Below, piece by piece: positions 8,499 through 14,943 of a stretch of 32,000 bases of DNA. The position numbers and the translations under genes were made by a program. Below the pieces are notes generated by a model that saw nothing but the letters and a program-made list of their open reading frames with translations, was not told the origin of the DNA and ran no database searches. This DNA is from Dickeya dadantii NCPPB 898 (GTDB lineage: Bacteria > Pseudomonadota > Gammaproteobacteria > Enterobacterales > Enterobacteriaceae): contig NZ_CM001976.1 of the NCBI RefSeq assembly GCF_000406145.1, positions 1,832,061 through 1,864,060 of the forward strand, given 5' to 3'. Position 1 is the first letter of the stretch; each line of letters starts with the position of its first letter.

Positions 8499-8588
8499 GG
8501 AGAGATGCCGGAGCGGCTGAACGGACCGGTCTCGAAAACCGGAGTAGGGGCAACTCTACCGGGGGTTCAAATCCCCCTCTCTCCACCA
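8499..8588 (+). tRNA. serU: tRNA-Ser (anticodon CGA), class II with long variable arm. Its 3' end is the prophage attachment junction.
   Basis: GGAGAGATGCCGGAGCGGCTGAACGGACCGGTCTCGAAAACCGGAGTAGGGGCAACTCTACCGGGGGTTCAAATCCCCCTCTCTCCACCA. Identical to E. coli serU as remembered, except that the discriminator is A instead of G. Confidence 0.93.
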
Positions 8589-8688: not shown

Positions 8689-9705
8689 CTATTCATCATT
8701 ATTGATTAGCGGCAGATCTAACGTTGGCGAAACGCTGACCTTTCTATCGTACGTTATGACCTGCGCTTCGGTCTTGTGTCCGCTGAAAAGTTGCTTATCG
8801 CGACTGCTGCCCTCGTAGTCAGAAATGCCCTTGGCTTTAATATCGTGAAAATGGCATGTTAAGGGACGCCCCAGCTTCTCACTTGCCGCTGACCTCGCTT
8901 TCCGAAACAAATCATTCAGACCAGATTTGCTGTATTTTCCACCCTTTGAGTTAGCAATAATGTATCTGCTGCCGCCAAGCTCCTTTGCTTTGTTTAAAGC
9001 CGCACGCAACCGGTCTGTATAAGCCTTGATTTGTTTTTTTCCGGTTTTCCCTTGCTGTATAAATAATCCTAAATCCATTTCCTGAGCCCATTCGAGATCA
9101 CGCACATCACCGCTTCTTGCGGCACACAGATACGCTATCTCCATTGCGCATTGTAGTGCCAGCGTCGCTTCGTTATAGATAGCCATATAAACATCGTCAT
9201 CGATATAGAGATCCCTGGGCTTGACCGAGAATTTTGATATTCCTGCACACGGATTCGTTTTCACATAACCCCGCTCATAACCCCAGCGATAAACCCGGCT
9301 CATACTGCTCTTTTCCTGATTTGCTTGCGTGCGTGATTTTTTCCCCCTGATATCAAGATAACGCCTGACGTGCTCCGGCTTGATAGAATCAGCCTTAGCG
9401 TTACCAAACGCGTGCAGCAGTTTTTTTTGATGCTGTAGGTAGTCAGACTGAGTGCGCGGCGACAAATCTTTGTAATACTCACTATTAAGAAAAAATACCC
9501 ACAGTTTTCCAAACGTCATTACGTCACGTTTAGAGCTAATAATCTTTTCGTATTTTTCCCAAACCTGCGCTATGGATAAATCACGAATTTTCCCTAACGT
9601 GATCGTCTCTTTTGTTTTTGCAGGTTTGAATATGTAGCTGTATTTGTTTTTCCTGACTCGCGGAGGTAGTTTGTTATCCTCAGGATTAAGTCTCTTTCGT
9701 CCCAT
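8689..9705 (-). CDS. int: Tyrosine integrase (lambda Int family)
   Basis: 338 aa. Catalytic-region motifs AYLCAARSGDV, HDIKAKG and GHKTEAQVITY. Adjacent to the tRNA att site. Confidence 0.9.
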   Translation of the reverse strand: MGRKRLNPEDNKLPPRVRKNKYSYIFKPAKTKETITLGKIRDLSIAQVWEKYEKIISSKRDVMTFGKLWVFFLNSEYYKDLSPRTQSDYLQHQKKLLHAFGNAKADSIKPEHVRRYLDIRGKKSRTQANQEKSSMSRVYRWGYERGYVKTNPCAGISKFSVKPRDLYIDDDVYMAIYNEATLALQCAMEIAYLCAARSGDVRDLEWAQEMDLGLFIQQGKTGKKQIKAYTDRLRAALNKAKELGGSRYIIANSKGGKYSKSGLNDLFRKARSAASEKLGRPLTCHFHDIKAKGISDYEGSSRDKQLFSGHKTEAQVITYDRKVSVSPTLDLPLINNDE

Positions 9706-9710
9706 TAAAT

Positions 9711-9938
9711 CTAAATTCCATCAAAGTTTATTCCGGCATCATCATCTTCCAGCTCAGGCGCTGGCGTTCCGTTTAATACGGCGTTAACATGCGCCCATGT
9801 TGTGCGAGGATGACCGTCTTTATTTGGTATAAAGGATATTCCGTTCCTGGTTAGAATTTTTATCTGGCCTGATGCGTACTTATAACCCGTCAGCTCCATT
9901 AAATCGTCTTCGCTTAAAATGTCGTTTTCTTTTCCCAT
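9711..9938 (-). CDS. DUF4224-like small DNA-binding protein in the excisionase position
   Basis: 75 aa with LSEDDLMELTGYKYASGQIKILTRNGISFIPNKDGHPRTTW, resembling DUF4224 proteins found next to phage integrases. Confidence 0.5.
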   Translation of the reverse strand: MGKENDILSEDDLMELTGYKYASGQIKILTRNGISFIPNKDGHPRTTWAHVNAVLNGTPAPELEDDDAGINFDGI

Positions 9939-10340: not shown

Positions 10341-10841
10341 TCAGCGGACCTGCAGCGACGGCTGCCCGATCTCAATGTGAGCGCCGGGGACGTCAACGCC
10401 AGCATCGATTGCCTCCTTGATGGCCTTTTTGTCCGGAGCAACCAGCGTTTGGACTGTAACGAGTTCATCCGGCAAAAGGCTCTCATTGTCGATGATGACG
10501 CTGGCAACTCCTTTGCGCGCCGTGAACGTGTTGCGCGGCGTCTTGAGCGATGACAGACCGGCAGCCAGCAGGCAATCCAGTGCGTATTTTTTCAGCTGCT
10601 TTTCCCGGTTTTCAAAAGAGCACTTACGCTCAGCCAGGCGTCTGGCTTCATCGTCACACGTCTTTGCCTGCCCCTGCAGGTTGCGGGTATGGATCATGAT
10701 GGCATCCAATTTATCACCGAGCTCCATTTCCATGCCGAGCATTGTGTCGGCGATCATTTCCGGGGTCAGTTCATCCGACTCTTCCAGCAACCGCTGGAGT
10801 TTTGCCATATCGCTGGCAATTGCGATAGCGGTAGTGCTCAT
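10341..10841 (-). CDS. Siphovirus Gp157-like protein (recombination-module accessory)
   Basis: 166 aa, coiled-coil N-terminus (LQRLLEESDELTPEMIADTMLGMEMELGDKLDAI) typical of the Gp157 family. ATGA start/stop overlap with the upstream annealing-protein gene. Confidence 0.6.
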   Translation of the reverse strand: MSTTAIAIASDMAKLQRLLEESDELTPEMIADTMLGMEMELGDKLDAIMIHTRNLQGQAKTCDDEARRLAERKCSFENREKQLKKYALDCLLAAGLSSLKTPRNTFTARKGVASVIIDNESLLPDELVTVQTLVAPDKKAIKEAIDAGVDVPGAHIEIGQPSLQVR

Positions 10842-12898
10842 GCTTTCTCTCCTTCTTTGGCTTTCAGTTCCGCGATGCGGGTGTCTTTCAGTTCGCTCAG
10901 GCGGCGCAGGCGGCCAGACAGGTATTTAGCGTGGTCGCTGTCGCCTTTTGCTTCGGCGTTCTTGCGGTGGACCTCAACCTCACGCGCCAGCACGCCGTAA
11001 ACCTTGGCCGCCTCGTTTTCGCTGACGGCCGCTTTAATGGTTTCTGCGGCGCGCCCCAGTTTTTCGTCCAGCTCTTCGCGCAGGCGGGTGACATCAACCG
11101 CTTTTTCACTGGCTCGCTTAATGCCGAACTCGACTTCGTTTTCTGCTACATATTCAGGGTTATCATGCATACCCAGCCACACGTCAGCACTGAAACCGAG
11201 CAGGGAAAGTGCCTTTTTGATGGCGTCAGTAAGGCTTTTCTTTATAACTTCCGAGTCGGTTTTAATCCCCTTCTGCGTTTTGTACATGTACGGAGTGGCA
11301 CCGTACGCCTCGATCTCTGAGTGACCGCCGTCATCGTTGATGTACCAGAATGCGATTTTCATCGAGTGATTCAATTCGGTGATAAGCGAACCATCCGCGT
11401 CACGCAGCAGCTTTGTGCCGATGAATTTTTTGTTGTCGTCATAAATTGCTTCACTTAGTGGCGCGCCAGGTAACATCTTTTCTTCCAAAATGCGGTGACC
11501 CCATCCGCTGCCCGCCGGACCAAAAATCTCCGTAGCCCGCATGAACATGTATTCGCTATTGATGCTGGTGCCTTCAAAGCCAGCGCCCGTCAGCGGTTTG
11601 GTGTAACGAGGGTCTGTGCGCTGCACACGTTTCCAGATGCTGAGATTTTCTTGCTCGACAACAGGCTTTTCTGCGATAGCTGATTCCACGGCCGCGGCGC
11701 GGGCCTGAAAATCATCCGCAGGTGCAGGCACCCCACCTTCATCATTACCCGCGTAAATGCCATACCCAATTTCATCGAGCTCCTGGCGGGCCTGCTGCGC
11801 GACGCTGACCGCCGGCTCCGGCTGGCTCGCTTCCGTTTTTTCTCCCTGATTTGAGGCGCCAGATTCGGGGCCGATCAATCCGTCGATAGAGAAACGTCCA
11901 CAGCCGAGATTTTGGATGTCGGGCTGCCGTGTGGCGGTAGCCGCGCCGGCATGCTGCGTACCATCGTCTTCGCGCCATGCGGCTAAATACTCGTCAGCCA
12001 AACGCTGGCGCGCGTTCGCATCGTTGAGCAGTTCGGGGCGTTTTTTCGCTTCGCGCAGCAGCCCCAGCAACACATCGCCGGGGATGGACAGGGCGCCATC
12101 TTGCAGTCGGATCGCCATCGACCAGCGCTGAAACATCTGGTCATCAGATTTAGCCAGCTCCTTCGCTCGAGCCACATCAGACGCGGACACGCCGTCGAAC
12201 GTGTCGGCATCAGTCACGAGGCACGACGCTATTCCGATGTCCAACCGATCCATGTTCGTCCACACGCGCTCAACTGCTGGCGCGTCTGCCGGCGGCGCGC
12301 TCTGGGTATGGCGATCAGATGTTCCGTATATCCAGTTATTGACGAACGCGCTGGCCTGCGCAGCATCAATCGGCGGGCTAAATTTTTTCTCGATCTCGGC
12401 AACCAGCTCGGTTACGCGAGCAGGGTACATTGCGGCCACGGCTGGGTACTGCGACAGCACTCTAACGATAGTGTGCGTGTCGTCATCGCCTGATTCATCG
12501 TCAGCAAAAAAATCGAGGACGAGAGAGTAGTCGTGGTCATCCAAATCTGTTTTGCCCAGTAGCACCAGCGCTGCGATTTTCTCCTGCAACGACAACTCAG
12601 CGGGGCGCTGAGGGGCCGGGTCTGGCTTGCGCGTCCACACGCCATCTACCAGCTCGTTTTCTTCCATGAAATCAGTGCTGAACTTACCGATTCCCGGACG
12701 CGGTGAGCCGACGCGATCCTCGGTAATGGTCGGATTAAAAAAATTGTCACTGGAGCCGGGGAATAGCTCTTCAATCAGCATGGTTGCCGCCATAGCGGCC
12801 AACTTCTGAGTCTTTGCTTCAACAAGCGTAGCCATTGCTTTGGCTCCGCTTTTTATCGCCGATTTTTTCGGCTCGAATGATGCGACATACATGGTCAT
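10838..12898 (-). CDS. Rad52/Rad22-type single-strand annealing protein with a ~400-aa N-terminal extension of unknown function
   Basis: 686 aa. The C-terminal third contains FEGTSINSEYMFMRATEIFGPAGSGWGHRI and KKSLTDAIKKALSLLGFSADVW, matching remembered Rad52-family phage SSAP motifs. The N-terminal part is acidic/low-complexity and has no motif I recognise. Confidence 0.65.
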   Translation of the reverse strand: MTMYVASFEPKKSAIKSGAKAMATLVEAKTQKLAAMAATMLIEELFPGSSDNFFNPTITEDRVGSPRPGIGKFSTDFMEENELVDGVWTRKPDPAPQRPAELSLQEKIAALVLLGKTDLDDHDYSLVLDFFADDESGDDDTHTIVRVLSQYPAVAAMYPARVTELVAEIEKKFSPPIDAAQASAFVNNWIYGTSDRHTQSAPPADAPAVERVWTNMDRLDIGIASCLVTDADTFDGVSASDVARAKELAKSDDQMFQRWSMAIRLQDGALSIPGDVLLGLLREAKKRPELLNDANARQRLADEYLAAWREDDGTQHAGAATATRQPDIQNLGCGRFSIDGLIGPESGASNQGEKTEASQPEPAVSVAQQARQELDEIGYGIYAGNDEGGVPAPADDFQARAAAVESAIAEKPVVEQENLSIWKRVQRTDPRYTKPLTGAGFEGTSINSEYMFMRATEIFGPAGSGWGHRILEEKMLPGAPLSEAIYDDNKKFIGTKLLRDADGSLITELNHSMKIAFWYINDDGGHSEIEAYGATPYMYKTQKGIKTDSEVIKKSLTDAIKKALSLLGFSADVWLGMHDNPEYVAENEVEFGIKRASEKAVDVTRLREELDEKLGRAAETIKAAVSENEAAKVYGVLAREVEVHRKNAEAKGDSDHAKYLSGRLRRLSELKDTRIAELKAKEGEKA

Positions 12899-12913: not shown

Positions 12914-13267
12914 TTAAGCGGTGGTAATTCCGCTGAGGGAGAGATGGTCAATGCATTGCAGGGTTTTAATTTGGTCTTCAATTTCCGACGCCTGCAGGTG
13001 AGCAGATTCGATAATGCTGGACTGCTGGCGGCGTAACTGCTCGACGTATTTGTTTTTGAGATCGTCTGCTGACAACTGAGGAGCGGGAATTGTAATTTCA
13101 CGAACTTCTATGAGCGTAAACCCGTTCCATTGTGACATGTCACAGGTGGCAACAAACGGAGCGGGATTAAAACGATTGTGATGGATGTACAGCTTGACGT
13201 TGATATCTGGCGCTTTCATAGCGATCCCTTTATACTTGAGCCTCCAGTGACGGCCCTTGGTTGTCAT
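12914..13267 (-). CDS. Hypothetical early protein (117 aa)
   Basis: Start reassigned to MTTKGRHW (13267) because it is preceded by the exact CCGAGGCAAAACCAATG cassette. The longer track ORF would run through a GC hairpin. Confidence 0.6.
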   Translation of the reverse strand: MTTKGRHWRLKYKGIAMKAPDINVKLYIHHNRFNPAPFVATCDMSQWNGFTLIEVREITIPAPQLSADDLKNKYVEQLRRQQSSIIESAHLQASEIEDQIKTLQCIDHLSLSGITTA

Positions 13268-13339
13268 TGGTTTTGCCTCGGCGCGGGGTGGTTCCCGCGC
13301 TGTTCCCGAAAGGTTTGGTCGCCGATCGGGGTGAAGAAG

Positions 13340-13366
13340 CCCGCGCAAGCGGGCTTTTTTGCTTCA
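13340..13366. terminator. Bidirectional intrinsic terminator hairpin (distal of two on the early-left transcript)
   Basis: GCCCGC-GCAA-GCGGGC followed by TTTTTT on the plus strand. On the minus strand the same stem is followed by TTCTTCAC. Confidence 0.65.
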
Positions 13367-13432
13367 CAACACAACACACTCTGGCCTTTTAAAACCGAAT
13401 AGACCCGATTTATCAGAGCGCGCTGTGGTGTG

Positions 13433-13470
13433 AAAAAGGGCGGATAGGGAAGGTAATAACCCACACCGCC
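13433..13470 (-). terminator. Intrinsic terminator hairpin on the early-left transcript (proximal)
   Basis: Minus strand GGCGG-tgt-GGG-ttattacctt-CCC-tat-CCGCC followed by CTTTTT. Confidence 0.6.
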
Positions 13471-13967
13471 AAGGTCTTACACGCAGCTTACTGGCAAGGA
13501 TCACGGTCCTAACGTGATTTGGTTGTGACGCCCGGAGTCGAACCGGGCGGCGGGTAGGGTTTCCCGCCGATCACCTGATCGTCAATTTGGTTGTGGTGCC
13601 GGGTGCCTCCCGGTTTTGATCCCCGCTCAAGAATCAAAGGCTGAGTGTTGTTAAACGAGGTTTTGCTTTGAACGCGCCCCGGCGCATAGCCGGATTCACC
13701 ACAACGGTAAGGGTATTGGGATTCGGTAACTACCTATAATTACTGATGTGCTGGCCGCTCAAGCGCGGGACACATAACAAACCAATACCCTTACCTGTTG
13801 TGTGCTCCGTAACGTGGAGCAGACGGTCTGTTTTTAAGCCTCACGGGGCATTCTTTACGCGGGCGGACGACTCAACCGCGTTCACTGCCGTGACAGGGGG
13901 CTTGTGTGGTGTTACGCGCCCATTGCTCAATTACTACCACCACCGCAACGAATCTAATCTGTGCCGG
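13433..13967 (-). ncRNA. Candidate large structured non-coding RNA / leader of the early-left operon
   Basis: No open frame on either strand that looks like protein; stops are dense in all three minus-strand frames. Many GC hairpins, a 20-bp long-range helix (13700-13719 with 13782-13802), tandem hairpin+CACAACCAAAT modules, and a terminator at the 3' end. Confidence 0.4.
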
Positions 13968-14084
13968 TTACGCTATCCGGCGTCGCTTTACCGACCCAAT
14001 CAGGCCAGAATTTACGACCGAACCTCTGGTGTTAGCGCAGTCTTTCCCGCTGTCAGAACTCATTACCCAAACTACTGCGGTCAT
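13968..14084 (-). CDS. Possible 38-aa leader peptide (MTAVVWVMSSDSGKDCANTRGSVVNSGLIGSVKRRRIA)
   Basis: Manual translation. The ATG at 14084 is preceded by the exact CCGAGGCAAAACCAATG cassette used by six other early genes. No recognisable family. Confidence 0.35.
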   Translation of the reverse strand: MTAVVWVMSSDSGKDCANTRGSVVNSGLIGSVKRRRIA

Positions 14085-14164
14085 TGGTTTTGCCTCGGTG
14101 CGAATCATCTACCTATTCGTGCGCCGGTAGCGGCTACTTCGTGGGCGTCCTGCCTGTTCGCTGT

Positions 14165-14264
14165 CGTTGGAATAACCTTAACTAAAGGTAAGTGAAAAGG
14201 CAAGCAAAAATACTTTCAAAAAGTTAAGTTGGCGAGCGGAAGTTATTATGCTAATGATTTTTAA
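14165..14264 (-). promoter_or_regulatory. Probable OL/PL region (early-left promoter and operators)
   Basis: AT-rich block just downstream of the cI stop. Candidate minus-strand promoters are TTGAAA-17-TTCACT and TTGCCT-17-TAAGGT. Motifs AACTAAAGGTA (14180-14190) and TTAAGTT (14224-14230) recur in the OR region (14718-14728 and 14701-14707). Confidence 0.4.
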
Positions 14265-14666
14265 TTATTTTTTGTTTGATTTTTTTCTAGCCATTAACAG
14301 CTCTTCGAAGAGTGCGTTAAATCCATCCACTTTCTGCTCAAGGTCTGCCAGATGACGCTCTTTTTCCGACTCGGGTAGAGAGTCAAACAAATCCAACAGT
14401 TTACGCTGTCTGTCATCCAGCTCTGTCGGTAATTCTTCCGGTGCCGCCGGGGTGCTGGATTCATCGCCATACAGAAGCCACGTGGGTGAACATCGGAGCG
14501 CCCTGCTCAGCGAGAAGAGGTTTTGGCCCTTAGGCTGAGAATCGCCATTTTCCCACTTGAATATCGTCACATGGGAAACCTTCACAGCATCGGCCAGGCG
14601 CTGCTGTGACATGTCCATTTCAGTTCGTCGCGCTCTAATGCGCTCATTCAGTGTTTCTGTCTTCAT
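14265..14666 (-). CDS. CI-like repressor, HTH_XRE N-terminal domain, no S24/LexA-type peptidase domain
   Basis: 133 aa. HTH SQQRLADAVKVSHVTIFKWENG. The C-terminal ~60 aa is a helical acidic region (LDDRQRKLLDLFDSLPESEKERHLADLEQKV) with no GxSM...K cleavage-domain motifs. Divergent from the cro-like gene. Confidence 0.8.
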   Translation of the reverse strand: MKTETLNERIRARRTEMDMSQQRLADAVKVSHVTIFKWENGDSQPKGQNLFSLSRALRCSPTWLLYGDESSTPAAPEELPTELDDRQRKLLDLFDSLPESEKERHLADLEQKVDGFNALFEELLMARKKSNKK

Positions 14667-14745
14667 GCGCTTAATATAAATTATGTTGACTTAGCTTTTA
14701 TTAAGTTTTAAATTCCAAACTAAAGTTACAGGTACGGAGGTGTTC
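14667..14745. promoter_or_regulatory. OR region with divergent PR/PRM promoters
   Basis: Plus-strand TTGACT (14686-14691), 17 nt spacer, TAAATT (14709-14714). Dyad ACTTA-N8-TAAGT at 14688-14705 overlaps the spacer. Shares motifs with the OL region. Confidence 0.55.
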
Positions 14746-14943
14746 GTGTTTAAAAATGACGCAATAAAATTTTTCGGCAGTAAAACAAAGCTGGCCATTG
14801 CTGCCGGTGTGTCGCAGGCGTCCGTGTCTCGCTGGGGTGACGTAATACCTGAGCGACGGGCGGCGCGGCTCGACCGCGTTACCAACGGTGCGCTGCGTTA
14901 TGACCCTGATCTCTACCAGCGTCATAACGATACCCAGGGTTAA
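14746..14943 (+). CDS. Cro/YdaS-like HTH regulator
   Basis: FGSKTKLAIAAGVSQASVSRWG helix-turn-helix. GTG 14746 lies 5 nt after GGAGG (the track start, GTG 14740, overlaps the SD). Position is opposite cI. Confidence 0.75.
   Translation: MFKNDAIKFFGSKTKLAIAAGVSQASVSRWGDVIPERRAARLDRVTNGALRYDPDLYQRHNDTQG

Follow-up and report, generated by a model that had tools for sequence, protein, structure and literature searches.

A non-coding early-left leader in a Dickeya dadantii prophage is an array of exchangeable structured-RNA cassettes

In phage lambda, the leftward strand directly downstream of the repressor gene holds the PL promoter, nutL and the N gene. Other temperate phages encode RNAs of different kinds: GOLLD and ROOL are conserved, complex-folded prophage non-coding RNAs of unknown function that sometimes lie beside tRNA genes, and the DicF-type small RNAs (sRNAs) of Qin and the RNase P-processed C4 (P1/P7) and CI (P4) RNAs are cut from repressor-controlled phage transcripts. 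In HK022, the putL element is promoter-proximal (PMC9378689), and relatives of STnc100 and PasD have been reported as prophage base-pairing sRNAs (bioRxiv 10.64898/2026.05.13.724894); STnc100 itself is a reported prophage sRNA with kinship to PasD. Here we analyse the gene-free leader that occupies the leftward strand directly downstream of the repressor gene in a prophage of Dickeya dadantii NCPPB 898, using a 32,000-nucleotide (nt) stretch of its genome (NZ_CM001976.1, positions 1,832,061 to 1,864,060; hereafter the window, numbered from its first letter). This leader is an array of separately conserved, exchangeable structured-RNA cassettes, and neither a single put-like element nor a decayed gene. 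The modules exist and lie on the early-left strand, closely related prophages exchange them as cassettes, and two are members of large covarying families absent from Rfam.

The 904-nt minus strand of the leader has a minimum free energy (MFE) of −350.1 kcal/mol, compared with −310 ± 8.1 kcal/mol for 20 shuffles (z = −4.98), which bears out the density of hairpins described in an earlier, sequence-only reading of this DNA; the plus strand of the same stretch gives z = −5.11. From its 5′ end, the leader carries a 5′ leader motif, a boxB-like hairpin, a structured mid-block, a long helix, an STnc100-like core, a tRNA-like cloverleaf, the terminator T1 and further hairpins that include a second terminator-like hairpin, T2. 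We scanned Rfam (release Rfam 15) at the gathering threshold over the whole window and at E ≤ 10 over 13100–14400. The first scan returned only two tRNAs, both outside the prophage leader, and the second only a sub-threshold STnc100 match and noise (CRISPR-DR28, isrB and isrK around T2). The search of the leader against Rfam proposed in the sequence-only reading thus yielded a partial STnc100 match and no other credible family.

Alignment of the corresponding gaps of the window, Pectobacterium phage ZF40, ST64B and SfIV left a single block common to all four, at 14100–14161 on the minus strand, just upstream of the segment on which the sequence-only reading had concentrated. This 62-nt 5′ leader motif is enclosed by the helix P1 (14157–14161/14100–14104) and contains the P1a hairpin GGC-AGGAC-GCC (14144–14154), the near-invariant core CCCACGAAGUAGCC (14132–14145) and the P2 hairpin (14109–14130), after which comes GAUGA. 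The layout of the family, which we modelled as R1, comprises an enclosing P1, GGC-loop-GCC, the near-invariant CCACGAAGUAGCC, P2 with a GGCRYAYGAA loop, and GAUGA. Loci were gathered by IMG/VR matches to the 21-mer CAGGACGCCCACGAAGTAGCC, which is present in at least 119 stretches, with 106 distinct versions among the matches listed. In the phage collection the same 21-mer occurs in phages of Escherichia, Salmonella, Shigella, Yersinia, Klebsiella, Citrobacter, Pantoea and Pectobacterium, and it is also present in Photorhabdus genomes.

Base pairing in this motif is strongly maintained. Across 101 sequences, 95% of cells are paired, compared with 18–46% when the partners are slid; double changes occur in 10 of the 11 pairs, and none of 500 shuffles reached the observed score. 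In Photorhabdus variants, the P1a loop AGGAC is replaced by AGGGAAA or AAGGAAA with GGC/GCC kept, and one C-to-U change in P1a yields a U-G pair. The window copy matches every position of R1 (83.3 bits) and is the sole copy in the 32 kb. Each of 100 related loci likewise has one copy, save for one degenerate duplicate. That duplicate (L075:979–1035, minus strand) has a 13-nt core deletion and lies about 650 nt past the intact copy, just before the first ribosome-binding site (RBS); it resembles a scar left by insertion between motif and gene. The 5′ motif had no Rfam match at E ≤ 10, and its sequence strings were not found in the searchable literature.

The motif is tied to a promoter. In the window, a PL-like promoter lies at 14175–14203 on the minus strand, with a −35 element TTGCCT (14198–14203), a 17-nt spacer and a −10 element TAAGGT (14175–14180). 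The inverted repeat ACCTT-TAGTT-AAGGT overlapping the −10 element is a putative operator, and we infer a transcription start near 14168. The ZF40 promoter has matching geometry (TTGACA-17-TACATT). More widely, 53 of 97 distinct homologous upstream regions contain a sigma-70 match scoring at least 9/12, compared with 0 control windows. The −10 element ends mostly 13–16 nt ahead of P1, a geometry shared by TTGCCT-17-TAAGGT in the window, and the motif should therefore begin about 6–9 nt into the transcript. Because 5′-terminal stems protect bacterial mRNAs, and because the first RBS follows within 15–50 nt of the motif in many loci, such a position could also fit a mere 5′-end stabiliser, or translational control of the first cistron, with no effect on RNA polymerase. 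We consider this unlikely: a simple protective stem would need no near-invariant 13-nt core across at least nine genera, Photorhabdus included, and in the window and many other loci no open reading frame (ORF) follows for 0.2–0.9 kb. The ORFs that come first after the motif are mutually unrelated, not N-like and not arginine-rich.

Two further observations concern this motif. A type I-E CRISPR array in Pectobacterium carotovorum DSM 30168 (L130:200–500; NZ_FQWI01000002.1), with repeat GTGTTCCCCGCGCCAGCGGGGATAAACCG, carries the spacer TAGCCGCTACCGGCGTATGAACAGGTAGATGA, which is identical to the P2 region of the 5′ motif in ZF40-like phages; the window copy differs at 3 positions, and the phage protospacer has AAG, the canonical I-E protospacer-adjacent motif, ahead of it. 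In addition, the leaders of an Escherichia coli strain 44 prophage (L131:1960–2900) and of L136–L144 lack the 62-nt motif and start with ACGACGCACUAACCACGCGGCAGUUG, possibly a diverged or deleted version of it. These same leaders contain four CUGAC + stem + GAAAGA hairpins and repeated GAGGAAAGACCAAUG words.

The second large family is represented by the mid-block (13803–13954, minus strand; model R2), which in the window is of the form we call type A. It consists of H1′ (GUGGUG/CACCAC), H2′ (GGGC/GCCC), H3, in which UGUCACGG (13888–13895) pairs with CCGUGAGG (13839–13846), the hairpin H4 (13858–13880), flanked by the kink-turn (k-turn)-like sequences GUGAA and AAAGAAU, and the hairpin H5 (13803–13822). 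A 25-mer from the mid-block occurs in 10 viral contigs, and the 17-mer GCCCCGTGAGGCTTAAA in 63 IMG/VR stretches with about 50 distinct sequences. The 5′ half exists in two forms, type A, found in the window and E. coli prophages, and type B, either of which is joined to a shared core of CCUGUCACGGCAGUGAA, H4, AAAGAAUGCCCCGUGAGGCUUAAA and H5. RNAalifold on 31 type B sequences predicted 34 pairs, 8 of them compensatory; for example, an H1 pair is AU in 17, UA in 11 and GC in 3, and pairs in H4 are AU in 16 and CG in 15, or GC in 16 and CG in 15. Across the 47 sequences of the shared core, the paired fraction of cells is 96.2%, compared with 24–55% when slid, and 61 cells show double changes, compared with 20.6 ± 3.1 in shuffles. 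G-U pairs are frequent (in 46 of 47 and 32 of 47 sequences at two of the pairs) and would be A-C on the opposite strand, which fixes the early-left strand as functional. A divergent type A sequence, L171, compensates in H1′, where GUGGUG/CACCAC becomes GUGGUA/UACCAC. The window scores 115.5 bits against R2 over positions 1–110, a value that is partly by construction because the window is in the seed and contains the exact collecting 17-mer. A k-turn comprises a C-stem, a 3-nt bulge, tandem sheared G-A/A-G pairs and an NC-stem. By sequence, the k-turn pattern fits as GU-GA-A|CGCGG opposite CCGCG-U|AAA|GA-AU; of its residues (alignment A6), G132 and A101 are invariant and G100 is A in 6 of 47 sequences.

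No Rfam match to the mid-block was found, either at the gathering threshold on seven loci or at E ≤ 10, and its sequence strings were absent from the searchable literature. Searches with nhmmer and R2 for diverged mid-blocks in ST64B, SfIV and other loci with the 5′ motif found none except in L094. Among complete E. coli genomes the mid-block is present in 6 records only. Of 62 mid-block loci, 21 also carry the 5′ motif, located upstream in the same orientation. A long non-coding stretch next to tRNA genes houses the mid-block in phage-plasmid-like contigs and in a 91-kb E. coli plasmid. A T-arm consensus occurs within 700 nt downstream of the mid-block in the sense orientation in 14 of 56 loci and in the antisense orientation in 0 of 56. 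Like GOLLD and ROOL, then, it is a conserved complex-folded prophage RNA found at times beside tRNAs; unlike them, it is smaller (about 150–190 nt), enterobacterial, unrelated in sequence and without a match to those Rfam families.

Three side observations concern the mid-block. A tRNA with a UUA anticodon (called 'tRNA-Stop' by ARAGORN) lies a few hundred nt past the mid-block in L165 (2765–2848), L180 (6031–6114), L189 (4792–4875) and L193 (1334–1417), which are phage-plasmid-like contigs of 85–93 kb. In L183, a tRNA-Met directly adjoins the mid-block at its 5′ end. The 8-mer CGAACGGC is common to the type B loop GGCGAACGGCAAG (for example, L145:5840–5865) and the stem I loop of HK022 putL, a match so short that it is probably due to chance.

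Several riboswitches and T-boxes contain k-turn motifs, and the complex fold of the mid-block, with its near-invariant internal loops and k-turn-like motif, its place upstream of T1 and its association with tRNA or tRNA-like elements in some loci are features that could be expected of a riboswitch-like or tRNA-sensing aptamer controlling terminator read-through in cis in response to a metabolite or uncharged tRNA. The cassettes that follow it vary, however (STnc100-like, tRNA or other hairpins), with no conserved expression platform; it also occurs within tRNA arrays of phage-plasmid-like contigs far from any obvious regulated gene, and no Rfam riboswitch or T-box model matched. An aptamer is therefore quite unlikely in our estimation.

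The clearest evidence that the modules are exchangeable and constrained by structure comes from a near-identical relative of the window prophage (L170:5615–6750; IMGVR_UViG_2854564814_000008). Its promoter, boxB-like hairpin, cloverleaf, T1, T2 and first gene are about 97–100% identical to those of the window, and between them four replacements are found. P2 of the 5′ motif is changed from CUACC/GGUAG to CCCGG/CCGGG with otherwise identical flanks; the 5′ half of the mid-block is switched from type A to type B; H5 is changed from GCUCC/GGAGC to GACCC/GGGUC; and a tRNA-Ala(ggc)-like gene (L170, 6186–6266) replaces the block formed by the long helix and the STnc100-like core. Base pairing is retained in every swap. 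The compensatory changes across homologues for which the sequence-only reading had asked are thus abundant, in the 5′ motif, in the mid-block and in these swaps.

Accessory 'moron' loci typically show cassette exchange between near-identical prophages. Together with the ACCA carried by tRNA-like ends (described below), the reports of STnc100 and PasD relatives as base-pairing sRNAs and the suppressor-type and other tRNAs beside the mid-block in some contigs, such exchange would suit modules that are trans-acting counter-defence or host-manipulating RNAs produced early in infection, such as decoys for tRNA-targeting nucleases, sponges or base-pairing sRNAs, with the leader position supplying only early, repressor-controlled expression and with no role in anti-termination. 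No target or defence system was identified, and the 5′ motif is tied to the promoter and not to any cassette. We regard this explanation as rather unlikely in its pure form. It overlaps the explanation that we favour (set out below) and differs from it only in denying a role in cis.

A protein-coding origin of the region is extremely unlikely. Candidate ORFs are present on both strands (13968–14084, minus; 13746–14195, plus), and the equivalent gap of ZF40 carries an annotated gene, gp09, so that a decayed or unrecognised coding sequence might be supposed: the 38-codon ORF, the antisense ORF or a gp09-like gene. On the minus strand between 13267 and 14264, however, the largest ORFs have 32–66 amino acids and start mainly with GTG or TTG, and no leader ORF, including the antisense one, matched Pfam or PHROGs at E ≤ 0.1. 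The 38- or 46-codon ORF (13968–14084/14108, minus), raised as a possibility in the sequence-only reading, lacks its ATG in ZF40, in which about 50 nt are inserted at that place. The antisense ORF, absent from that reading, encodes 149 Cys/Arg/His-rich residues from an ATG. In tblastn against all collected loci, its matches fall mostly within residues 115–146, which are the invariant RNA motif read backwards, and the longer matches also cover conserved leader nucleotides; it is almost certainly, judging from these alignments, not a gene, with an apparent conservation that mostly mirrors the RNA motif. Homologues have no conserved protein frame, with 1-nt indels within the best conserved leader block, and conservation tracks helices rather than codons. 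ZF40 gp09 itself lies within the non-coding leader and has marginal PHROG matches only (E about 0.05).

The untranslated stretch is in fact longer than first described. The first early-left protein gene (12914–13219, minus; PHROG 2479, function unknown) had been open to a start at 13266, but alignment to PHROG 2479 begins at residue 17 (MKAPDINV) of that longer ORF and the homologues begin MEALAIPVKLYIH or MKAPEITITLYIH, so the start is the ATG at 13217–13219. An ORF-free leader of about 0.6 kb had been proposed; the absence of a credible minus-strand ORF stands, and the gene-free stretch becomes about 950 nt. It also follows that the GCGCGGG/CCCGCGC stem, previously placed at the next RBS, is not located at the real one. 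A 12-pair hairpin (13244–13270) lies just 5′ of the true RBS and is terminator-like on the plus strand, where the stem is followed by TTTTGCC. The annotated start of ZF40 gp08 is about 75 codons ahead of its PHROG 2479 homology (MKAPEITI), and the gp08 and gp09 annotations (L001:2544–3569) both look wrong.

The phage is a temperate one of the ZF40/ST64B type, with ZF40 as the closest sequenced phage, and the leader forms part of its early-left (PL-like) transcript, which is under repressor control. The prophage is complete within the window and adjoins tRNA-Ser(cga) (8499–8588; ARAGORN). Minus-strand genes encode the integrase (8689–9705), the excisionase (9711–9938), a Mu Gam-like/Gp157 protein (10341–10841), with 2 small ORFs listed between it and the excisionase gene, and an exonuclease of 686 amino acids (10838–12898); upstream of the leader lies the gene for a 133-residue HTH_3 repressor (14265–14666, minus). 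Divergent from the repressor gene is a Cro-like gene (14740–14943, plus), beyond which the plus-strand side has cII/YdaT-like, O-like, DnaC-like and DnaB-like replication genes, with terminase and portal farther on. Pfam and PHROG annotation of the early-left operon genes found no N-like protein, in agreement with the sequence-only reading, whose description of a long, untranslated, structured leader on this transcript is also supported. Comparable gaps of 0.4–1 kb after cI occur in ZF40, ST64B, SfIV, mEp460 and the E. coli strain 44 prophage, where they are unannotated or filled with doubtful ORF calls; in YeP1 and AH07 the 5′ motif lies within a short unannotated stretch right after the repressor gene.

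We compared the leader with put of HK022 only, although King et al. 2011 reportedly lists further put sequences. The putL sequence was rebuilt from the HK022 genome, with numbering that matches the residues cited in the cryo-EM paper (PMC9378689). Put has one copy just past PL and a second past PR, and it suppresses terminators by acting in cis on RNA polymerase, with no protein factors. Like putL, the 5′ motif lies right at the 5′ end of the PL transcript in a temperate phage without an N-like gene, and like put it spans 60–75 nt with near-invariant unpaired nucleotides between covarying helices. Put consists of two side-by-side stem-loops, whereas the 5′ motif is an enclosing P1 with two internal hairpins. 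A search of the HK022 cI-nun-cro region with R1, filters off, had a best score of 8.3 bits (E = 0.38), for a hit away from the put sites, and hand alignment of the leader to the rebuilt putL found short shared words only.

The sequence-only reading had looked for a put-like element elsewhere, in two stem-loops (13548–13569 and 13531–13547) that would form a protein-independent RNA binding RNA polymerase and allow read-through of T1 and T2. The stem-loops exist, abut without a spacer and lie upstream of T1, in an operon in which no N-like protein was found. However, they are the anticodon-like and T arms of a four-way tRNA-like cloverleaf (13526–13585, minus) whose T loop matches the tRNA consensus (UUCGACU) and whose acceptor-like stem covaries with ZF40. 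They are also distant from the promoter (about 600 nt), unlike the promoter-proximal putL (PMC9378689), they have no sequence likeness to the rebuilt putL, and outside the window the module was seen in ZF40 and L170 only. A put-like role for this pair is accordingly very improbable.

The cloverleaf has a short acceptor-like stem, a D-like arm (GAUC-AGGU-GAUC), an anticodon-like arm (13549–13568) and a canonical T arm (CCCGG-UUCGACU-CCGGG, 13531–13547), followed by CA-ACCA. The MFE fold recovers the four-way junction, and 4 compensatory pairs separate the window from ZF40: in the latter, UGACG/CGUCA of the acceptor-like stem is replaced by UAGCG/CGCUA, and GGCGGG/CCCGCC of the anticodon-like stem by AACGGG/CCCGUU. 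Likeness to tRNA is limited to the T arm and the ACCA tail. As a candidate for a canonical tRNA, the element was rejected, with no ARAGORN call from the default down to a 70% threshold and no RF00005 match at E ≤ 10.

The preceding element, which also ends in ACCA, is an STnc100-like core (13592–13703, minus). It has a UGUGGUG...CACCACA closing stem, internal hairpins and, by the 3′ strand, CCGGG-AGGCA-CCCGG. It shares with STnc100 the UGGUGAAUCC...ACCGGGAGGCACCCGGCACCA signature, and full-length members above threshold occupy the same place in related leaders (L040, 49.1 bits; L010, 72.2 and 52.6 bits). Unlike STnc100, the window core is without the first 30 positions at the 5′ end and the family's own terminator, and the cloverleaf and a hairpin intervene before T1. 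In about 40 of 123 loci the STnc100 signature hairpin was found 440–1070 nt past R1 and on its strand; no antisense case was seen.

Between the mid-block and this core lies a long hairpin (13702–13800, minus) with a stem of about 19 bp (5′ arm, 13782–13800; 3′ arm, 13702–13719). Its centre is the 14-nt perfect inverted repeat I2 (13706–13719/13782–13795), which is also present in the MFE fold, so the long-range helix of the sequence-only reading is upheld. The 5′ arm (ACAACAGGUAAG..) resembles sequence after the mid-block in many other loci. This helix is a possible RNase III substrate, and by analogy with DicF, C4 and CI, it and the two ACCA-ended acceptor-like stems could be processing signals; unlike those RNAs, the leader has no sequence or Rfam similarity to any of them. 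Separately, in ST64B-type phages IsrK and the C4 antisense RNA lie side by side on the early-right side, both above the gathering threshold (L002:4632–4820, plus; L020:4100–4288, minus; L110:4401–4589, minus), and L007 has an isrB match of 99 bits.

Of the two terminators previously proposed, T1 (13431–13470, minus) is a plausible sense-strand terminator in our scan: its GGCGG...CCGCC hairpin followed by CUUUUUCA (−14.1 kcal/mol, U5) has the GC-rich stem and U-tract of an intrinsic terminator, and it is conserved in ZF40 and L170. T2 (13332–13360, minus; GCCCGC-UUGC-GCGGGC) has A6 upstream and UUCUUCA, a poor sense U-tract, downstream. Intrinsic-terminator features appear for T2 mainly on the plus strand (AAGCCCGCGCAAGCGGGCTT then TTTTGCTTC, −15.0 kcal/mol), so that it may act bidirectionally. 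Its stem covaries with those of other loci (GCCCAC/GUGGGC and ACCCAC/GUGGGU). A stricter terminator scan of the minus strand called neither T1 nor T2.

The remaining minus-strand features are smaller. The MFE fold includes a hairpin AUCACG-UUAGGAC-CGUGAU (13500–13518), conserved in ZF40 and L170, and a long imperfect hairpin (13365–13432) that contains CGCUCUGA (13413–13420). Terminal hairpins lie at 13305–13330 and 13281–13300 (loop AACCAC), the second of which covaries in relatives (GCGCGGG/CCCGCGC versus ACAGGG/CCCUGU). Entirely flanking the array are two copies of a 23-nt direct repeat, D3 (CGCaCCGAGGCAAAACCAAUGAC), at 14080–14102 and 13263–13285, which are 96% identical; the upstream copy holds a Shine–Dalgarno-like GAGG and the AUG opening the non-conserved 38-codon ORF. 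The repeat may be the insertion joint of the array or a decoy start site. The word ACCAA occurs six times in the leader, mostly unpaired.

A lambda-type nut site combines a CGCUCUUA-like boxA with boxB, the loops of which in lambda are GAAAA or GAAGA, and serves an N-family protein whose gene lies downstream. The leader likewise has a hairpin with a conserved purine-rich loop and covarying stem, the boxB-like hairpin at 14037–14058 (minus), in which a UUCUGACA flank precedes GCGG-GAAAGA-CUGC. Elements of the form (Y)CUGACA, a 4–6-bp stem and a GAAAGA loop, with stems that differ yet are complementary, occur in ZF40, L019/L088, L024, L032/L054 and L046, and four times in the E. coli strain 44 leader. 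Unlike in lambda nut, the loop has 6 nt and not 5, and no N-like arginine-rich protein or N-like ORF was found. The only boxA candidate in the window is CGCUCUGA, a weak 7/8 match to the lambda boxA core, buried in a stem. Consensus boxA is present in related leaders: of 102 distinct leaders, 22, those of the SfIV type and Photorhabdus among them, have the rrn-type (C/U)GCUCUUUAACAA 50–160 nt past the 5′ motif. Its presence after the motif in N-less phages points, on sequence grounds, to Nus-factor antitermination. As a side observation, L003, L127, L129 and about 20 other leaders have (C/U/A)GCUCUUUAACAA, in the SfIV type just after a hairpin with A6 upstream.

We reasoned that the whole forms a repressor-controlled, non-coding leader or RNA operon of about 950 nt whose products are probably processed, with the 5′ motif as a candidate for read-through; we give this composite about an even chance of being right. 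Among the readings offered earlier, an sRNA precursor or large non-coding RNA fits best. On loss of the repressor, PL would transcribe the RNA array, and much of this transcription would end at T1 to give a non-coding product. RNase III could then cleave that product at the 19-bp helix, and RNase P or RNase E with 3′ trimming may act at the two ACCA-ended acceptor-like stems, to yield stable RNAs. Polymerase bound for the recombination, excision and integration genes would have to pass T1 and about 0.9 kb of untranslated RNA, and the 62-nt promoter-proximal motif is the best candidate for arranging this because of its putL-like position and its independence from the following gene. Its action may involve Nus factors, since rrn-type boxA lies just after the motif in many relatives.

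Several results weigh against this composite. Every functional step in it is inferred from sequence, and because the loci are related, there are fewer independent events than the counts of covarying cells suggest. The 5′ motif does not have an unusually stable fold (z +0.7 to −0.9), and its wobble pairs leave the strand unfixed (9 G-U versus 8 A-C). Terminator-like hairpins downstream of the motif are sense in 59 of 89 loci and antisense in 73 of 89, so a general need for anti-termination is not demonstrated, and neither the window nor the 100 related loci have a copy on the PR side, the extra copy in L075 being on the same strand. The lack of both an excess of sense terminators and a PR copy makes the anti-termination role the weakest link. 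The mid-block was not found in GenBank phage isolates and is absent from 98 of 100 searched sources that carry the 5′ motif, so there is no need for the modules to act jointly. Only about 8 of about 58 mid-block loci have a canonical tRNA gene next to the mid-block, and the STnc100-like core scores 37.4 bits against RF02076, under the gathering score of 47 (E = 3.1e-6; model positions 31–147 of 206).

A more specific possibility is that the 5′ motif is a second class of nascent-RNA processive antiterminator, structurally unrelated to put, in many N-less temperate phages of the Enterobacterales, and that the mid-block is a trans-acting, complex-fold RNA co-expressed with tRNA mimics. We hold this to be doubtful, and no less doubtful the proposal that goes with it, namely that the mid-block would be ribozyme-like or a binder of protein or tRNA, manipulating the host or evading tRNA-directed defence.

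The STnc100-like piece (a marginal family member), the tRNA-like element and the terminators are of kinds already known. The literature turned up no structured prophage RNA matching the leader modules and no put-like prophage RNAs, and the 5′ motif and the mid-block are apparently undescribed families, as far as Rfam 15 and the searchable literature extend. For both there are now alignments and covariance models, and the window and L170 provide a natural cassette-swap pair. Many enterobacterial temperate phages, among them ST64B, SfIV, mEp460, ZF40 and numerous prophages, lack an N-like protein, and the 62-nt motif at the 5′ end, found from Escherichia to Photorhabdus, offers a concrete candidate for read-through in their N-less early-left operons. 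Taken together, these data identify the supposedly empty gap after cI as a swap-site for structured RNA genes, one of which, about 150–190 nt long and with a k-turn-like core, represents a family found neither in Rfam nor in the literature searched.

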